From: Chloroflexota bacterium
GTDB taxonomy: Bacteria > Chloroflexota > Dehalococcoidia > UBA2979
Direction: 5' to 3'
Assembly (NCBI GenBank): GCA_027593235.1
Contig: JAQCIU010000008.1
Location: 1 to 64,000 of the forward strand
Length of the DNA stretch: 64,000 bases
Both the position numbers and the translations under genes were made by a program. Below the pieces are notes generated by a model. It made no database searches, was not told where the DNA came from, and saw only the letters and a program-made list of their open reading frames with translations. Shown here piece by piece: positions 31,847 through 41,055 of this stretch (positions are counted from its first letter, which is position 1; the number at the start of each line of letters is the position of its first letter).

Positions 31847-31994
31847 GATTCTGATTATCCCCTGACTGCCGCCCAAACGCGACGCCTCGAGCCCTCCGCC
31901 CGTCTCTTATAACGATCGCTGGCCGCCGAGCCGACGCTCGAAGCCGAACCTCCCCCTCACAACTCCCTACGCGATGACCCAACCCACGCCGTCC

Positions 31995-32031
31995 GGGACG
32001 GAGGTCACGTCCATCACCAGACGTTTGTCCC
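31995..32031. promoter_or_regulatory. Two tandem DosR/DevR-like boxes upstream of nosZ
   Basis: GGGAC-GGAG-GTCAC (31995-32008) and CAGAC-GTTT-GTCCC (32018-32031). Confidence 0.45.
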
Positions 32032-32126
32032 TTCGTTCACAGACCAATCCGATCAACGTTGAGTACGCAAGAAGTCGATCGGATCGAACAAGCCCGATCG
32101 GGTCGAAATGGGAACGGAAGGACCGG

Positions 32127-34076
32127 ATGAAGCGACTATTGCTGGTTGGACTCACCGCAATCGCGGCGTTGTCGCTCTATGCCTGCACTGGCGGGGATGA
32201 CGACAGCGGCGGATTGACTGGATCGGCGCAGGAAATCGCAAAGGACCGCGGCCTCACTGACGCGGACGTTCAAGCCGCCTTGAAGACATTCGTGCCGTCG
32301 GGTGGACGCGACGACTACGTCATGTTCGCGTCTGGCGGACACTCCGGTTCGGTCTTCGCGATCGGCATCCCGTCGATGCGTCTGCTGAAGAGCATCGCTG
32401 TCTTCACGCCGGAGGCGTGGCAGGGCTACGGCATCGGCGGGTCGGCCACCGAAGCGACCTTGGATGCCGGGAACTTCAATGACACGGAGATCCGCTGGGG
32501 TGACACGCACCACCCCGCACTGTCGGAAACTGCCGGCGACTACGACGGCCAGTTTTTGTTCATCAATGACAAGGCCGGCGCCCGCGTCGGGGTAATCGAT
32601 TTGAAGGACTTCGAGACGAAGCAGATCGTCAAAAACCCCTTCTCGACGATCGACCACGGCGGCACCTTCGTGACCCCGGACACCGAATGGGTGATCGAGG
32701 GCCCGCAGTACGCCCACCCGATCGGTGGCGCCTACGCCCCGTTGGACCAGTACAACGAGGTGTACCGCGGCTACATCATGTTCTGGAAGTTCGACCGGGA
32801 GGCTGGCCGCATCGACGAGAGTCGGTCCTTCGGCATGGAGCTCCCGCCGTACTGGCAGGACCTCTGTGACGTCGGCAAGCTCGACTCCGCCGGATGGCTC
32901 TTCTGTGGCTCGCTCAACTCCGAGCGCGCGACCGGTGGCATCGAGAGCGGCAACCCGCCCTTCGAGGTTGGCGTCTCCCAGAACGACACGGACTTCCTCC
33001 ACGTGATCAACTGGGAGAAGGCTGCGGAAATCGCCTCAAACGCGGCGAACACCGAGACCTTCAACGGCATGCCCTACATCACCACGGACACCGCCATCGC
33101 TGAAGACCTGCTCTTCCTGGTGCCGGAACCGAAGAGCCCTCACGGTTCGGACGTCACCCCGGATGGCAAGTTCGTGATCGTCTCTGGCAAGTTGGACCCG
33201 ACGATTACGGGCTACTCGTTCGCGAAGATTCAGGCTGCGATCAGTGCCGGCTCCGGTGACCCGGATCCGTACGGCATCCGCATCCTCCCCTTCGACGAGG
33301 TGATGGAAGCACAGATCGAAGTTGGCCTTGGGCCGCTACACACCCAGTTCGCTGGTAACGGCATCGCCTACACCAGCCTCTTCCTGGACAACGCGGTCTC
33401 CAAGTGGCGCTTCGGCGACACCTGGGAGCTGATCTCGACCACGCCCACCCAATACAACGTCGGCCACATCGCGGCCGCCGAGGGTGACACCGTGTCTCCG
33501 GACGGCAACTACCTGGTTTCGCTCAACAAATGGGCCACGGACCGCTTCACCACGGTTGGGCCGCTCTTGCCGCAGAACCTCCAGCTACTCGACATTTCGA
33601 TCGAGACGCCGCAGGTGATCTACGACATGGCCATGGGTGTCGGTGAACCGCACTACGCGCAGATCATCAAGGCCGACAAGCTGCAGGCCTGGGAGGTCTA
33701 CCCGGAGATCGGCTGGGATCCGCACACCGGTGCGGTCGACCCGAACGCTGCGCTCCCTGGACAGGAACGCGTGGAGCGCAACGGCAACAACGTCGAGATC
33801 TGGATGACCGCGATTCGGAGTCACTTCACTCCGGAGAACGTCGAGATCAAGGCTGGTGACAAGGTCACCTGGCACATCACGAACATCGAGCGGGCCTACG
33901 ACGCCACGCACGGGTTCGCGCTGCCGGGACACAACATCACCTTGAGCCTTGAGCCCGGTGAAGCGGCGACATTCGAGTTCGAAGCCAAGAACTCTGGTGT
34001 CTTCAACTTCTACTGCACCGAGTTCTGCTCGGCACTGCACCTGGAGATGATGGGACACCTGCTGATCGAGCCATAG
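32127..34076 (+). CDS. nosZ: Clade II (Sec-dependent, lipoprotein) nitrous-oxide reductase
   Basis: Lipobox LYA-C, no twin-Arg; CuZ His motifs DTHHP, DHGG, PHG, GPLH, VGH, EPH; CuA THG...CTEFCSALHLEM. Confidence 0.97.
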   Translation: MKRLLLVGLTAIAALSLYACTGGDDDSGGLTGSAQEIAKDRGLTDADVQAALKTFVPSGGRDDYVMFASGGHSGSVFAIGIPSMRLLKSIAVFTPEAWQGYGIGGSATEATLDAGNFNDTEIRWGDTHHPALSETAGDYDGQFLFINDKAGARVGVIDLKDFETKQIVKNPFSTIDHGGTFVTPDTEWVIEGPQYAHPIGGAYAPLDQYNEVYRGYIMFWKFDREAGRIDESRSFGMELPPYWQDLCDVGKLDSAGWLFCGSLNSERATGGIESGNPPFEVGVSQNDTDFLHVINWEKAAEIASNAANTETFNGMPYITTDTAIAEDLLFLVPEPKSPHGSDVTPDGKFVIVSGKLDPTITGYSFAKIQAAISAGSGDPDPYGIRILPFDEVMEAQIEVGLGPLHTQFAGNGIAYTSLFLDNAVSKWRFGDTWELISTTPTQYNVGHIAAAEGDTVSPDGNYLVSLNKWATDRFTTVGPLLPQNLQLLDISIETPQVIYDMAMGVGEPHYAQIIKADKLQAWEVYPEIGWDPHTGAVDPNAALPGQERVERNGNNVEIWMTAIRSHFTPENVEIKAGDKVTWHITNIERAYDATHGFALPGHNITLSLEPGEAATFEFEAKNSGVFNFYCTEFCSALHLEMMGHLLIEP

Positions 34077-34240: not shown

Positions 34241-34936
34241 ATGGACATGACGGACGTCCGAAGTGGACTCGCCCGCCCACTTGAGGGCCTGCGAACAGCG
34301 GCCGGCACGCTCCGTCGGTCCGCCTGGGCTCCAACCAGACGCTGGATCGCGGTGTACGGGGACCGCTGGTTCCCGATCGCTGCCGCCCTGCTCATCACTG
34401 CATCGATCTTCTTCCCGTACTGGCGCCTGAAGCTCAACGCACCGCAGTACCCGCGGGGCCTGGAGGCGAGCATCGGGATCCGCGACGTCGCCGGTGATGT
34501 CAGCGAAATCGACGGCCTCAACCACTACATAGGCATGCGCCCGCTCGCCGAGGGCGGGAAGCTGGAACTCAGCATCTCCATCTACGCCATTCCCGCGATG
34601 GCCGGCCTTGCCGCACTTGCCGCGATCCGCCGGCGTCGGTTCTGGCTCTTCGCGCTTCCGGCCATCGCCTACCCGGTGGTCTTCACCGCGGATCTCTACT
34701 ACTGGTTGTATGACTTCGGACACACTCTTGATCCAACTGCGGCACTCTCGAACGCCTTCGATGAATTCACACCCACCCTCATCGGACCGGGTCGCGTCGG
34801 CCAATTCACCACGTTCTCCTTCTACGAGATCGGCTTTGGCATGGCCTTCCTCGGTTCGGTGCTCCTCGTCATCTCCACTGTCGTGCGCGTTCGACGCGAG
34901 CGCGCCGCCGACCGTCTCACCATGGCAGGCGCCTGA
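34241..34936 (+). CDS. nosB: NosB-like polytopic membrane protein of clade II nos clusters
   Basis: PYWRLKLNAPQYPRGL, EIDGLNHYIGM, YDFGHTLDP; about 4 TM; right after nosZ. Confidence 0.82.
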   Translation: MDMTDVRSGLARPLEGLRTAAGTLRRSAWAPTRRWIAVYGDRWFPIAAALLITASIFFPYWRLKLNAPQYPRGLEASIGIRDVAGDVSEIDGLNHYIGMRPLAEGGKLELSISIYAIPAMAGLAALAAIRRRRFWLFALPAIAYPVVFTADLYYWLYDFGHTLDPTAALSNAFDEFTPTLIGPGRVGQFTTFSFYEIGFGMAFLGSVLLVISTVVRVRRERAADRLTMAGA

Positions 34937-34938
34937 CC

Positions 34939-36675
34939 GTGATCGCCGCGCTCGTCGCGGTCATCCTGCTCGTCTCAGCTGACGGGCCCTACACCTCGAT
35001 CCCCGAGGCGCTGGCCGTTGCCCAGCCCGGCGACACGATCCTCGTTCACGGCGGCGTGCACCCCGCGCTGCTGATCGACAAGTCCGTCACGATCCGCGGC
35101 GAAGCCGGCGCCGTCATCGATGGCGGCGGTCTTGGCGACGTCGTGACGATCGACGCGCCCGATGTCACCCTCGAGGGCTTCGAACTCCGCCGTTCCGGGC
35201 GCGTGCTCTACCAGGAGCACGCCGGCGTCACCGTGCTACAGCCACGCGTCACCGTCCGCGACAACGACATCCACGACGTACTGTTCGGCGTGTTCGTGAA
35301 GCGCGGAGACCACGCGCTGATCCAGGGCAACCACGTCACCGGTTACGACTACCTGGATGTCCACTCGCGCGGCGATGGGTTGCGCGCCTGGTACAGCGTC
35401 GGCGCCCGCTTCATCGAGAATCGCGTTGAACGCACCAGGGATGTGATCCTCTGGTTCTCCAACGACGCCGTGGTCAAGGACAACGTCATCTCCGATGGGC
35501 GCTACGGCCTCCACTTTATGTACGACGACGGCATGGTCGTCAGCGGGAACCACGTCCACGACAACTCCGTCGGCATGTTCCTCATGTACTCGTCGAATGT
35601 CGCGGTGCGCGACAACTTGATCACGGACAACTCCGGGCCCAGCGGGTACGGCATCGGCCTCAAAGAGGTCGCCAACCTGGACGTCACCGGCAACGTCTTG
35701 CTGCGCAATCGCATCGGAGTCTCGTTCGACACTGTCCCGCATGGGCAGGACGCGTTCGCGACATTCACGGGCAACCTCGTCGCGTTCAACCTCGCCGGCA
35801 TGTCCTTCCAGCCCGACACGAAGCGCGTCGAACTGCTGACCAATAGCTTCGACCGCAATGGCACGCAAATCGAAATCCGTGGCGGTGGCGATCTTGCTGG
35901 GAACGTCTGGAACGCAGACCGTGGCAACTACTGGAGCGACTACGTCGGCTACGACGCGGATCGCGACGGCATCGGCGACCTCGCCTACGAGCCGCAGTCG
36001 CTCTTTGAATCGTTGCGTGACGAGGATCCCGTCCTCGCGCTCTTCAACTTCAGCCCCGCGGCACTCGCCGTAGACTTCGCCGCCCGCGCCGTCCCGAACC
36101 TCCGGCCCAGTCCCAAGGTGGTGGACGCCGCCCCGCTCACCGATAACCTCGCTCCACCCTGGTTCGAAGCCGGACGGAGCGCTCGCCTGCCGCTGGCGAC
36201 CGTGACCATCGTGTTGCTCACACTTGGCGTTGTGGTCACCCGCGGTATGTCGCGCGGATTCGAGGCCGGCACGACGCGTGCACGAGATGAGGATGCTTCG
36301 ATGGCGATGGATGACGTGAGCGCCATCCTCAGCGCGCGCGGGCTCACCAAACGCTACGGCGATCGCACCGTTCTCAACGCCCTCGATCTCACCGTCCGGC
36401 GTGGTGAAGCGGTCGCGCTCTGGGGTGGCAACGGCGCCGGCAAGACCACCGCCATCCGCTGCATCGTCGGCGTCGTTCGCCATGACGGTGATGTCTACGT
36501 CGATGGCGCCCACCTCGCCGAGGAGCCGCGCGCCGTCCGCCGTGCAATCGGTTACGTCCCCCAGGATCAGCAGCTCACCGATCTGCCGGCTCGCGAGCTG
36601 CTCTCCTTCTTCGGCGCGCTTCGCGGCGTCCCCGCTGACGAGGTGGGTGCAACCGCGATCCTCGTCGGCATCTAG
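34939..36675 (+). CDS. nosD: NosD fused through a TM helix to the N-terminal half of a NosF ABC ATPase; ends at an in-frame TAG
   Basis: Beta-helix with RGDG..WYS, GRYGLHFMY, GNYWSDY.GYD...DGIGD; then TM; then Walker A GGNGAGKTT and IGYVPQ. Confidence 0.9.
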   Translation: MIAALVAVILLVSADGPYTSIPEALAVAQPGDTILVHGGVHPALLIDKSVTIRGEAGAVIDGGGLGDVVTIDAPDVTLEGFELRRSGRVLYQEHAGVTVLQPRVTVRDNDIHDVLFGVFVKRGDHALIQGNHVTGYDYLDVHSRGDGLRAWYSVGARFIENRVERTRDVILWFSNDAVVKDNVISDGRYGLHFMYDDGMVVSGNHVHDNSVGMFLMYSSNVAVRDNLITDNSGPSGYGIGLKEVANLDVTGNVLLRNRIGVSFDTVPHGQDAFATFTGNLVAFNLAGMSFQPDTKRVELLTNSFDRNGTQIEIRGGGDLAGNVWNADRGNYWSDYVGYDADRDGIGDLAYEPQSLFESLRDEDPVLALFNFSPAALAVDFAARAVPNLRPSPKVVDAAPLTDNLAPPWFEAGRSARLPLATVTIVLLTLGVVVTRGMSRGFEAGTTRARDEDASMAMDDVSAILSARGLTKRYGDRTVLNALDLTVRRGEAVALWGGNGAGKTTAIRCIVGVVRHDGDVYVDGAHLAEEPRAVRRAIGYVPQDQQLTDLPARELLSFFGALRGVPADEVGATAILVGI

Positions 36676-37179
36676 GATCACCTGCAGAAGCGCCCAAACG
36701 AACTCTCCGGCGGGCTCCGCCAGCGGCTCGCGCTGGCCATCGCCCTCCTCGGCGATCCGCCGCTCCTGCTCCTCGACGAACCGACCGCCAACCTCGACGC
36801 CGCGACACGCGAATCGATCTTCGCGCTGCTGGACGCGAAGCGAAGCCGCGGCACCACCGTCGTCTTCACGACCCACCGCGCGGACGAGGTGATCGCCTTC
36901 GCCGATCGCGTCATCACGCTGCAAGACGGTCGCGTCATCGCGGAGGAGGCCGCGGACGCCTTCGCCCGCAACCTGGACGGTGCGACCAACAACCTGCTGA
37001 TCCGCGTCGCCGAGGACGATGTCACCCGCGCGCACGCGCTGCTGGCGGCGGCGGGGCTCAACGTCACCGCTCGCGCCGGCTGGCTCACCGTCCGCGACGC
37101 ATCCCCCGATCGGCCGCTCCACGTCCTCTTCATCGAGGGCATCGCCGTCCTCGAGTCAGCAATCGGGAGCCAACGATGA
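36301..37179 (+). pseudogene. nosF: NosF ABC ATPase domain split by TAG at 36673-36675 (nonsense mutation, sequencing error or readthrough)
   Basis: Same frame continues after TAG with ELSGGLRQRL, LLLDEPTANLD, TTH to TGA at 37179, which overlaps the nosY start. Confidence 0.8.
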
Positions 37180-38003
37180 GCCCGCATACGGTCGGCCTGA
37201 TCGCCCGCCTGGAGTTCCAGGCAGCGCTCCGCAACTGGTGGCTCGTCCTTTACGCCGCCATCTTCACCGTCCTCGCTGGTGGCGTGTCCTATCTCTCCGC
37301 CGGCGGACTCTCCGGCCTCGAGGCCGGTCAATTCGGGCGCACCGCCGCCGCGCTCACCAACGTCGTGCTGCTCGTCGTCCCGCTCTTCGGCCTGATCGCG
37401 GGCGCCATCTCACTCGCCGCGGATCGGGAACGTGGGCTCCTCGCCTACTACCTGGCGCAACCGATCTCCGCGGCGGAGCTGTTCTGGGGCAAATACCTCG
37501 GAACCGCCGCGGCGCTTCTCGTGGGGCTCGCTGTCGGCTTCGCGGCGGCCGCGCTCGCACTCGCCCGAGGTGGGGCGCTCGATGCCATCGACCTCGTGTG
37601 GCTGATCGCGCTCTCCGCGCTGCTGATGCTCGCGGCGTACTCGGTCGGGACCCTGATTTCCGTGCTCTCGCGCCGCAGCGCCATGGCCCTCGGCGTTGCC
37701 GTCTTCGCCTGGGTCACATTGCTCTTCCTCGGCGACCTGGGCCTGATGGCTACGGTCGTCGCGACACGCCTCGATCTCCGGATCGTCATCGGTATCGCGC
37801 TGCTCAACCCGGCCGAGGCCTTCAAGATCGCCAGCATCGATCAGGTCGGCAGCTCGCTCGACGCGCTCGGCCCCGCTGGCAACTACCTCGTCACCAACCT
37901 CGGGCGTGGACTGCGCCCGCTGCTCCTCGCGCTGCTCGCCTCCTGGATCGTGATCCCCTCGCTGCTCGCGATGCTGCGCTTTGAGCGCGACGACGCGATC
38001 TAA
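37176..38003 (+). CDS. nosY: NosY ABC transporter permease
   Basis: Multi-TM; DRERGLL..YLAQPIS...GKY, LLNP; ATGA overlap with nosF. Confidence 0.9.
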   Translation: MSPHTVGLIARLEFQAALRNWWLVLYAAIFTVLAGGVSYLSAGGLSGLEAGQFGRTAAALTNVVLLVVPLFGLIAGAISLAADRERGLLAYYLAQPISAAELFWGKYLGTAAALLVGLAVGFAAAALALARGGALDAIDLVWLIALSALLMLAAYSVGTLISVLSRRSAMALGVAVFAWVTLLFLGDLGLMATVVATRLDLRIVIGIALLNPAEAFKIASIDQVGSSLDALGPAGNYLVTNLGRGLRPLLLALLASWIVIPSLLAMLRFERDDAI

Positions 38004-38016
38004 GGTGGCCCGAACG

Positions 38017-38442
38017 ATGCGCGCCATCGCTGTCACCTGTGCCCTCGTGGTTCTGATGTCGCTGACCGCCGCCTGCAACGACGAGGCGCTGAACGAGTTT
38101 GGCGCCGCCGGCGCCGGTCAATCCTCGGTCACCGTTCAGCTCTACGACGGGTGGATCGGCAGCCCGGAAACGGATCAGGCGATCGGACCGGGGCTCCCGC
38201 TCCAGGTCACACTCCACCCCCACAACGACGTCACGATCCACGTCATCAACATGGGCGCCGCAGTCCACGCATTCGCCCTCTACGCCGACGAGGCCGGTAC
38301 CGAGCTCCTGGTGCAATCGCAGGCGCTGCCGCCCGGGGCGACCGAGGAATTACGGTTCCACTTTCACGACGCGCAGATCGCCTACTTCTTCGATGACGGC
38401 CATCGCAAGGACATGCGGGGAGAGTTCCATGTCTACGAGTAA
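38017..38442 (+). CDS. Cupredoxin-like lipoprotein lacking the type-1 copper Cys
   Basis: Lipobox LTAA-C; VTIHVIN...HAF, LPPG, YFFDDGHRKDMRGEFHV. Confidence 0.6.
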   Translation: MRAIAVTCALVVLMSLTAACNDEALNEFGAAGAGQSSVTVQLYDGWIGSPETDQAIGPGLPLQVTLHPHNDVTIHVINMGAAVHAFALYADEAGTELLVQSQALPPGATEELRFHFHDAQIAYFFDDGHRKDMRGEFHVYE

Positions 38443-39067
38443 CGTCGACTGGCTTCGGTGGACGACGATCGCGGTGTTCGTGGTCGCAATCGCCATGGCT
38501 GCAGTCATCGCCTGGGATCGCCTGGGGGGGACGTCCGCGGACCCGCACATCTTCGCCAGCGTGGTCTACGACCCGGCCGAAACCATGCCGGACTTCACGC
38601 TGACCGCTCAGGACGGCACGCCATTCACGCTCAGCGAGCAGCGCGGCGAAGTCGTCGCCCTCTATTTCGGCTACACCCACTGCCCCGATGTCTGCCCGCT
38701 CACCCTCAGCAACCTCGCCCGCGTCCGCAACGGCCTGCCCGAGGACCTCCGCGAGGACCTCCAAGTCGTCATGGTCACAGTCGATCCCACCCGCGACACC
38801 GTCGAGGTGATGGCCGACTACGTCCCGGTCTTCGACGCCAGCTTCATCGGCATCAGCGGTACGCCGGCGGAGGTGGAGCGGGTCCTCGGCAGCTGGCGCA
38901 TCCCCGTCGAACTGGGCGAACCGGACGCCGCGGGCAACTACGCCGTCGGGCACCCCGCCTACACGTTGATCCTCGATCGTGAGGGTCGGCGCCTGCTCAA
39001 GATGAACCAGATCATCACCTTCGAGCAGATGGCGGCGGACCTGCGCGCGGTCCTCGAACAGAGCTAG
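38429..39067 (+). CDS. SCO1/SenC family copper chaperone
   Basis: N-terminal TM; FGYTHCPDVCP, VTVDP.RD, distal His (YAVGH). Confidence 0.93.
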   Translation: MSTSNVDWLRWTTIAVFVVAIAMAAVIAWDRLGGTSADPHIFASVVYDPAETMPDFTLTAQDGTPFTLSEQRGEVVALYFGYTHCPDVCPLTLSNLARVRNGLPEDLREDLQVVMVTVDPTRDTVEVMADYVPVFDASFIGISGTPAEVERVLGSWRIPVELGEPDAAGNYAVGHPAYTLILDREGRRLLKMNQIITFEQMAADLRAVLEQS

Positions 39068-39785: not shown

Positions 39786-40469
39786 ATGGCAAGCATCCTC
39801 GTCGTCGAAGATGACCCCACGATCCGCGATGTCGTGGTCTATCAACTCCAGGCGGCCGGCCACGATCTCCACACCGCCGACGACGGCGTCGACGCCGTCG
39901 ATCAGTTCCGCGCGAACAAGCCCGACCTGGTCATCCTCGATCTGATGCTTCCCCGACTTCCCGGCCTCGACGTGTTGCGCATTCTGCGTCGGGAGTCGAC
40001 CGCGCCGGTGATCGTGACCAGCGCGCGCACACGAGAGGCGGACAAGCTCGCGGGCTTCGAACTGGGCGCGGATGACTACGTGACCAAGCCATTCGGCATC
40101 CGCGAGTTACTCGCCCGCGTAGAGGCCAACCTCAAGCGGACCTTGCCGCCACGCAGAACCGGCGAGCGAGCGCCATCGTCGATCGACGTCGATGACGGCA
40201 GCCACACCGTGAGGCGCCACGGCGAGCGGGTCGCGCTCACACCGAAAGAGTTCGAATTACTCAGCTTCCTGGTGCGGCACCCGAACCAGGTCTGCTCCCG
40301 GGACCTGATCTTGGAATCCGCCTGGGGCTATGCCTACCCGGGCGAGACCCGCACCGTCGATGTGCACATGCACTGGCTCCGCCAGAAGCTGGAGGACAAC
40401 CCTGTCAGCCCGGCGCACCTGATCACGGTCCGCAACTACGGATACATGTTCGTTCCGGACCCCGCGTGA
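39786..40469 (+). CDS. OmpR/PhoB family response regulator (no adjacent kinase)
   Basis: LVVEDD, LDLMLP, GADDYVTKPF, LTPKEFELL, RTVDVH. Confidence 0.95.
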   Translation: MASILVVEDDPTIRDVVVYQLQAAGHDLHTADDGVDAVDQFRANKPDLVILDLMLPRLPGLDVLRILRRESTAPVIVTSARTREADKLAGFELGADDYVTKPFGIRELLARVEANLKRTLPPRRTGERAPSSIDVDDGSHTVRRHGERVALTPKEFELLSFLVRHPNQVCSRDLILESAWGYAYPGETRTVDVHMHWLRQKLEDNPVSPAHLITVRNYGYMFVPDPA

Positions 40470-40698
40470 TGATCGATCCGAGCGATGCATTTCGTTTGTT
40501 CGGATCAGCGCTGGTGGCTTGTGCGGCGATCGACTTCGTCGGGTACGATGGTTTCAACGGATCGAGAGATCTGTTACCTCAGTTCCACTCCCGGGTCGTC
40601 TCATCCGAACACCACGTCGAGCAGCTGAGCATCAAGCGTTTGCCGCAAGTGCGGCGGACAAAGTAGCCGGCTATGTGCCGGCGTGGAGTTCAAGTTTT

Positions 40699-41055
40699 AT
40701 GTCCCAGAGAATCTACGTGGGGAACTTCCCCTACTCGGCCACTGAAGAAGAGGTCGAGAAGCTGTTCGGTCAGTACGGCGAGGTCATCTCGTGCGCGCTG
40801 CCGACCGACCGCGAGACCGGTCGCCCGCGCGGCTTCGGTTTCGTTGAAATGTCCAACGAGGATGCCGCGAAGGCCATCCAGGCCCTGGACGGCACCGACT
40901 TCGGTGGCCGCTCCCTGGCCGTTTCCGAGGCTCGCCCCCGTGAAGACCGTGGCGGTTCCCGCGGCGGCGGCGGTGGTGGTGGCTACGGCGGCGGCGGCGG
41001 TGGTGGTGGTTACGGCGGCGGCGGCGGCGGTGGTGGTCGCGACCGCCGTTACTAG
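40699..41055 (+). CDS. RRM RNA-binding protein with Gly-rich tail
   Basis: RNP2 IYVGNF, RNP1 RGFGFVEM, GGGGGGGY repeats. Confidence 0.95.
   Translation: MSQRIYVGNFPYSATEEEVEKLFGQYGEVISCALPTDRETGRPRGFGFVEMSNEDAAKAIQALDGTDFGGRSLAVSEARPREDRGGSRGGGGGGGYGGGGGGGGYGGGGGGGGRDRRY

Follow-up and report, generated by a model that had tools for sequence, protein, structure and literature searches.

Results

A nos cluster with a fused nosD-nosF gene

The window, the whole 64,000-nt stretch that was analysed, carries on its forward strand a nos cluster in the order nosZ, nosB-like, nosDF, nosY and SCO1. The nosZ gene (31974..34076) is intact and ends in TAG. Its product matches TIGR04246 over profile positions 1-578 with 788.1 bits (cut-off 625), against 343.8 bits for TIGR04244, which assigns it to the Sec-dependent clade II nitrous-oxide reductases, and no other nosZ occurs in the genome. 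It is followed by a gene for a nosB-like membrane protein of 231 aa (34241..34936) that gave no Pfam or NCBIfam match and contains the stretch LNHYIGM, which is described as conserved in NosB in the available text of PMC9697520. The nosDF gene begins 863 nt downstream of nosZ with a GTG at 34939 and closes with a TGA at 37177-37179 that overlaps the ATG of nosY (ATGA). The nosY gene (37176..38003) is intact and encodes an ABC-2 type permease (Pfam ABC2_membrane_2, 2.1e-21). Next comes a gene for a copper chaperone of the SCO1/SenC type (38099..39067; Pfam SCO1-SenC 6e-38, residues 164-297), at the place where nosL often sits; its true start is probably further in than 38099. A search of the genome, which is 89.7% complete, gave no match to NosL (PF05573), and the SCO1/SenC product may take the NosL role. 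Elsewhere in the genome nirK is present (348.5 bits, cut-off 296.3), and a second NosD is absent, a single strong match being found.

The nosDF gene is a 746-codon fusion of nosD and nosF that encodes a beta-helix, a membrane helix and an ATPase. Its 5' part belongs to the NosD family, with a full-length match to the curated model (TIGR04247, 364.2 bits, cut-off 300; residues 21-401 aligned to profile positions 1-376 of 377) and a match to Pfam NosD PF05048 at 9.9e-37. No stop separates the NosD part from the ATPase part; a hydrophobic helix at residues 417-434 (36187-36240) is followed by a short linker that leads straight into the ATPase. From the GTG the frame runs for 578 residues to an amber codon, TAG, at 36673-36675 on the forward strand, and then for 167 further residues to the TGA (...ILVGI-TAG-DHLQKRPNELSGG...; the codons over 36667-36684 read GGC ATC TAG GAT CAC CTG). 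The amber is codon 579, in frame with the GTG, and no other stop interrupts the frame from 34939 up to the natural TGA.

The amber codon lies within the ABC ATPase domain, between the Q-loop and the signature and 10 codons upstream of LSGG. The 5' part (34939..36672) thus holds the NosD beta-helix, the membrane helix, the linker and the ATPase half with Walker A (GGNGAGKTT, 36424-36450) and the Q-loop (36553-36567), and the 3' part (36676..37179) holds the signature (LSGGL, 36703-36717), Walker B (LLLLDEP, 36763-36783), the H-switch (TTHR, 36868-36879) and the C-terminal domain. The motifs on both sides all fit the invariant columns of a 31-sequence alignment. This bears out a preliminary description of the locus, which had placed an in-frame amber inside the ATPase domain with the signature, Walker B and His switch following it intact and in frame. 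ABC_tran (Pfam) is matched over profile positions 1-71 of 137 before the TAG (1.3e-13) and over 101-137 of 137 after it (E 2.6e-9), so that the PF00005 motifs do not share one open frame and the whole domain is not encoded as the gene stands. The same description had called the domain NosF. The locus next to nosZ does encode an ABC ATPase together with nosD and nosY, but as part of a NosD-NosF fusion and not as a separate nosF; the name NosF rests on this context and on fused homologues, with no NosF-specific model among the matches and the best ABC models below cut-off. After the TAG no canonical in-frame restart occurs before a GTG at 36889, 72 codons on and beyond the H-switch. A CTG three codons past the TAG, behind AGGA, was considered as a restart and the case was too weak to propose.

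The fusion in related sequences

With the read-through protein as query, PF05048 and PF00005 were both found in 120 of the 120 homologues among the matches listed. These were 713-832 aa long with one exception, P0126, which at 578 aa is the window's own product and the sole truncated form among the matches listed. The closest of those listed are 78-80% identical (P0124, P0125, P0127 and L026) and uninterrupted, and those partial sequences that most closely match the ATPase part likewise extend back into the NosD C-terminus. No Met stands at the NosD/NosF junction in the closest homologues, so that a conserved internal start is lacking. Six more distant relatives, at 34-39% identity and belonging to the same family or class, have a separate nosF, and their NosD ends about 10 residues past the equivalent helix. 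Judged from these protein comparisons, fusion of NosD and NosF is usual within this clade and common in databases, and a complex built from such chains would contain two NosD per F2Y2 core. A literature search found no published discussion of NosD-NosF fusion or of nonsense alleles of nos accessory genes; the fusion that it did retrieve is one of NosB with NosL.

The fused type is 78-80% identical to metagenome proteins and 40-45% identical to proteins labelled Chloroflexi or Anaerolineae, and for three genomes of the same genus there was no NosD-part match among the rows listed (relatives G001-G040). A search for related loci in metagenome contigs returned nine, of which only L026 (80%) and L027 (64%) were close. 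L026 is a 116-kb metagenome contig with an identical gene order and an uninterrupted nosDF of 745 codons that is 80% identical to that of the window; the remaining genes are 86% (nosZ), 74% (nosB-like), 82% (nosY) and 72% (SCO1) identical, with no stops. In the window as in L026 the SCO1/SenC gene follows nosY. A frameshift in the L027 nosDF was rejected as a lesion, the break coinciding with two N in the record. No near-identical strain was found by this search, the five loci from genome contigs being ABC genes of 26-37% identity, and a degenerate DNA pattern around codon 579 had 0 matches in metagenome contigs, a collection from which near-identical records are perhaps left out.

The amber allele and its sense counterpart in public runs

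The source genome is a 78-contig metagenome bin that is 89.7% complete, which made an assembly error plausible, and a consensus error had been among the explanations first offered for the stop. Parts of the region 35200-38000 were present in 20 public runs from 10 studies (24 runs were listed in the search, all DNA); four were compared, all as assembled contigs, which drop rare variants. In run X1 (2016, aquatic) an 11,006-nt contig of depth 32.4 matches the window at every position of 36100-37200, and in run X3 (2023, estuary) a contig of depth 12.3 covers 36433-36899, likewise without a difference; both runs carried a flag that the window may derive from them. Run X6 (2022, marine sediment), which was not flagged, has two contigs that keep the T at 36673 and that differ from the window at 6 positions in 126 nt and 3 in 217 nt (depths 4.62 and 3.57). 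Furthermore, the 578-aa truncated protein is recorded from three contigs (JGI, ENA and Logan), whose overlap with the X runs is possible. The T at 36673 is therefore real, and the suggestion of a consensus error falls. The amber allele occurs in runs dated 2016, 2022 and 2023 from three studies, labelled aquatic, marine sediment and estuary; it is widespread and not private to one assembly.

The sense counterpart was found in run X4 (2024, freshwater), which belongs to a fourth study and where a contig over 36345-36927 (depth 4.7, 14 differences, 97.6% identity) has G at 36673 and hence GAG at codon 579. A single contig at a depth below 5, as for both X4 and X6, may carry errors, but the G is credible despite the low depth because it restores the codon of L026, which is GAG at the equivalent position, and the Glu found in eight of the nine closest homologues. 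Over the 30 aligned homologues Glu occupies the column in 11, the residues seen being E, A, T, S, D, V, R, L and G. Thirteen differences of the X4 contig are listed; 11 are synonymous and the others are the TAG codon itself and T547P, Pro being the residue of the two closest homologues retrieved. The event is GAG to TAG, one G-to-T transversion, which settles the earlier proposal of a nonsense change from GAG or CAG in favour of the former. The gene shows what is expected of a nonsense pseudogene: a sense codon in close relatives, the stop in independent data and no recoding machinery among the genes found.

The X6 contig shares the X4 variants 36573A, 36577C and 36648C yet keeps the TAG, and the sharing of three variants of the GAG strain places the amber allele on a second background. 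The assembly of X3 divides into two branches at 36870-37078 that share identical flanks. The minor branch (depth 4.2) has 11 differences in 36900-37048, nine of them synonymous, and it joins, as does the major branch (depth 9.38), the single TAG-bearing contig, whose depth of 12.3 is close to the sum of the two. The pattern in X3 suggests recombination between strains inside nosDF and a third, mosaic haplotype with TAG. For X6 as for X3, contigs cannot prove phasing.

TAG as a terminator in this genome

Over the whole genome, TAG closes 1255 (56.5%) of the 2222 long coding-like frames, as against 687 for TGA and 280 for TAA; the early remark that many genes here end in TAG is borne out. TAG is thus the commonest terminator in a genome of 68% G+C. 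Such a preference is unusual for a G+C-rich bacterium. RF1 is present (505.7 bits, cut-off 423). ARAGORN at its default setting gave 56 tRNAs and one tmRNA, and among the 56 tRNAs of this 89.7% complete genome none has the anticodon CTA (CUA). CTA calls that appeared when the thresholds were set at 85% and 70% were discarded as noise, the totals then being 2745 and 35008 calls compared with 57 by default. A tRNA-Sec (anticodon TCA) lies on contig C32 at 91255-91351. In the genome search PylS reached 25.3 bits against a cut-off of 178.15 and PylD 28.6 against 150.05, each passing its cut-off in one of 14 control genomes in control searches. The locus resembles pyrrolysine-type amber decoding in that its conserved coding frame contains an in-frame TAG, and is unlike it in that tRNA-CUA, PylS and PylD were not found and TAG is the main terminator.

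A genome-wide screen for stops followed in frame by coding-like sequence (114 TAG, 20 TGA and 19 TAA) cannot separate adjacent same-frame genes from interrupted ones, and it missed nosDF owing to its GC3 threshold. As it could not discriminate, paralogues were screened instead. With ten ABC ATPases as tblastn queries, 47 ABC ATPase places were found in the genome, and a stop inside the domain occurs in nosDF only, the other 46 having none. Two other ABC alignments contained stops, a TGA and a TAG, which lie past natural gene ends. TAG usage, RF1, the lack of tRNA-CUA, PylS and PylD among the genes found, and paralogues free of internal stops together make general or dedicated recoding very unlikely, in agreement with the preliminary description, which had doubted general recoding.

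Conservation on either side of the stop

Relative to L026, dN/dS comes to 0.14 beyond the TAG, compared with 0.16 in the NosD part and 0.27 in the front half of the ATPase. The three closest intact homologues are 80-83% identical to the window's sequence beyond the TAG and 82-83% identical in NosD. No second lesion was found in the cluster, nosZ, the nosB-like gene, nosY and SCO1 all being open relative to L026. An intact cluster and the lack of decay downstream mean either that the lesion is recent relative to these divergences or that the downstream part is still used.

Discussion

The cluster is like the NosDFY system of Pseudomonas stutzeri in that a NosD beta-helix protein, an ABC ATPase and an ABC-2 permease are encoded beside nosZ, as set out in the available text of PMC13685413. 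It differs from the NosDF2Y2 complex described there in that a membrane helix links NosD and NosF within a single polypeptide, and from P. stutzeri in being a Sec-dependent clade II cluster with a nosB-like gene and SCO1, without NosL, and with an ATPase half that a TAG interrupts. Its domain order recurs in fused NosD-NosF proteins from uncultured bacteria, several of them labelled 'nitrous oxide reductase family maturation protein NosD' (NCBI; Chloroflexi and Anaerolineae bins); the listed ones are uninterrupted, unlike the copy in the window. The nos cluster itself may, to judge from sequence comparison, have been acquired sideways.

We propose that the amber codon marks a real, naturally segregating GAG to TAG knockout allele of nosDF, so that nosZ would be present with CuZ maturation lost, a reading of the sequence to which we give a probability of about 0.75. 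The kind of event is ordinary, a point nonsense mutation. Translation would terminate at the TAG at 36673-36675 and the product would be a periplasmic NosD with the membrane helix and an ATPase stump that retains Walker A and the Q-loop. Such a stump, without the signature, Walker B, the H-switch and the C-terminal domain, would be expected to form no ATP sandwich and to hydrolyse no ATP. According to the available text of PMC13685413, copper transfer from NosL to NosD and on to the enzyme is driven by ATP binding and hydrolysis, and disruption of nosD, nosF or nosY yields N2O reductase without CuZ. A NosDFY machine unable to cycle would leave NosZ without its CuZ centre and hence no N2O reduction; from the gene content, the carrier strain probably cannot mature NosZ. 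As the stop of nosDF overlaps the start of nosY (ATGA), termination some 500 nt upstream of the overlap would probably also lower nosY translation.

The conservation downstream of the stop and the several haplotypes fit a young or neutral knockout, and would also fit a tolerated leaky stop. Leaky termination is the only serious rival. It would have near-cognate tRNAs read the TAG and supply enough full-length NosDF for slow CuZ assembly, with function near-neutral or weakened. The undecayed part after the TAG and the cluster free of a second lesion speak for it, as does the recurrence of the allele on several haplotype backgrounds in runs of three studies. The column of codon 579 tolerates nine residues, so that any inserted amino acid would do, and the near-cognate Gln-CUG, Glu-CUC, Lys-CUU and Tyr-GUA tRNAs are all present. 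However, basal readthrough in bacteria is usually well under 1%, no known readthrough-promoting element was found, and the RNA fold after the TAG is barely better than its shuffles (z = -2.06, with 3 of 200 as good). RF1 is present and TAG is the commonest stop, which also argues against a leaky codon. NosF is moreover needed as two copies per complex, as stated in the available text of PMC13685413. On balance we regard leakage as unlikely, though the first alternative to be kept in mind.

Another possibility is that the amber allele is maintained and not merely drifting, through a leaky lowering of dose or through loss being favoured in oxic waters. The argument for maintenance draws on the two to three haplotype backgrounds, the three studies between 2016 and 2023, the lack of a second lesion and the strong purifying selection after the stop, and we consider it unlikely. 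If leakage maintained the allele, the stop would lower the dose of a fusion that otherwise imposes two NosD on each complex. If loss of maturation were favoured in oxic waters, the nos genes would be kept by recombination with GAG strains.

An assembly or consensus error, with GAG in the organism and the T arising as an artefact, has the fragmented metagenome bin and the G of run X4 to recommend it. It would require the same error in the separately built contigs of X1, X3 and X6, at depths of 32.4, 12.3, 4.62 and 3.57, and in the three further database contigs that encode the 578-aa form, and the X4 contig, which differs at 13 other places, represents another strain and not a correction; the explanation is highly improbable. 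Equally improbable is programmed recoding by a dedicated suppressor tRNA or a pyrrolysine system, which has in its favour only the open conserved frame after the TAG and the incomplete bin, outside which a suppressor tRNA is possible given 89.7% completeness, and against it a tRNA set without CTA, PylS and PylD scores far under cut-off, the termination of 56.5% of long frames by TAG, 46 of 47 ABC ATPase paralogues with no internal stop, and homologues with ordinary residues at the column of codon 579, with GAG in close strains.

If the knockout reading holds, it bears on surveys of N2O sinks, which score the presence of nosZ as an N2O reducer; here nosZ is intact, but a single base change interrupts the maturation ATPase. 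Carriers with nirK could be net sources of N2O and not sinks, and accessory nos genes need checks at the level of codons. The TAG and GAG forms provide a natural allele pair for gauging the amount of NosF activity that CuZ assembly requires.

Damage to nos maturation genes may be recurrent, the instances at hand being isolated cases and not a rate. A 68% relative, P0066 (471 aa, from a 493-kb contig), consists of the NosD C-terminal part and NosF as far as the beginning of Walker B, followed in frame by NosY residues 182-275. Its NosY portion has 65% identity (E 2e-31). At the level of the protein, P0066 could be an apparent deletion of the back half of the ATPase and the front half of NosY, or an assembly chimera. 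Downstream of the nos cluster in the window, a gene for a small RRM-domain RNA-binding protein (40519-41055; PF00076 3.3e-23; NF058537 100.1 bits, cut-off 100) lies just after a response-regulator gene (39786-40469).
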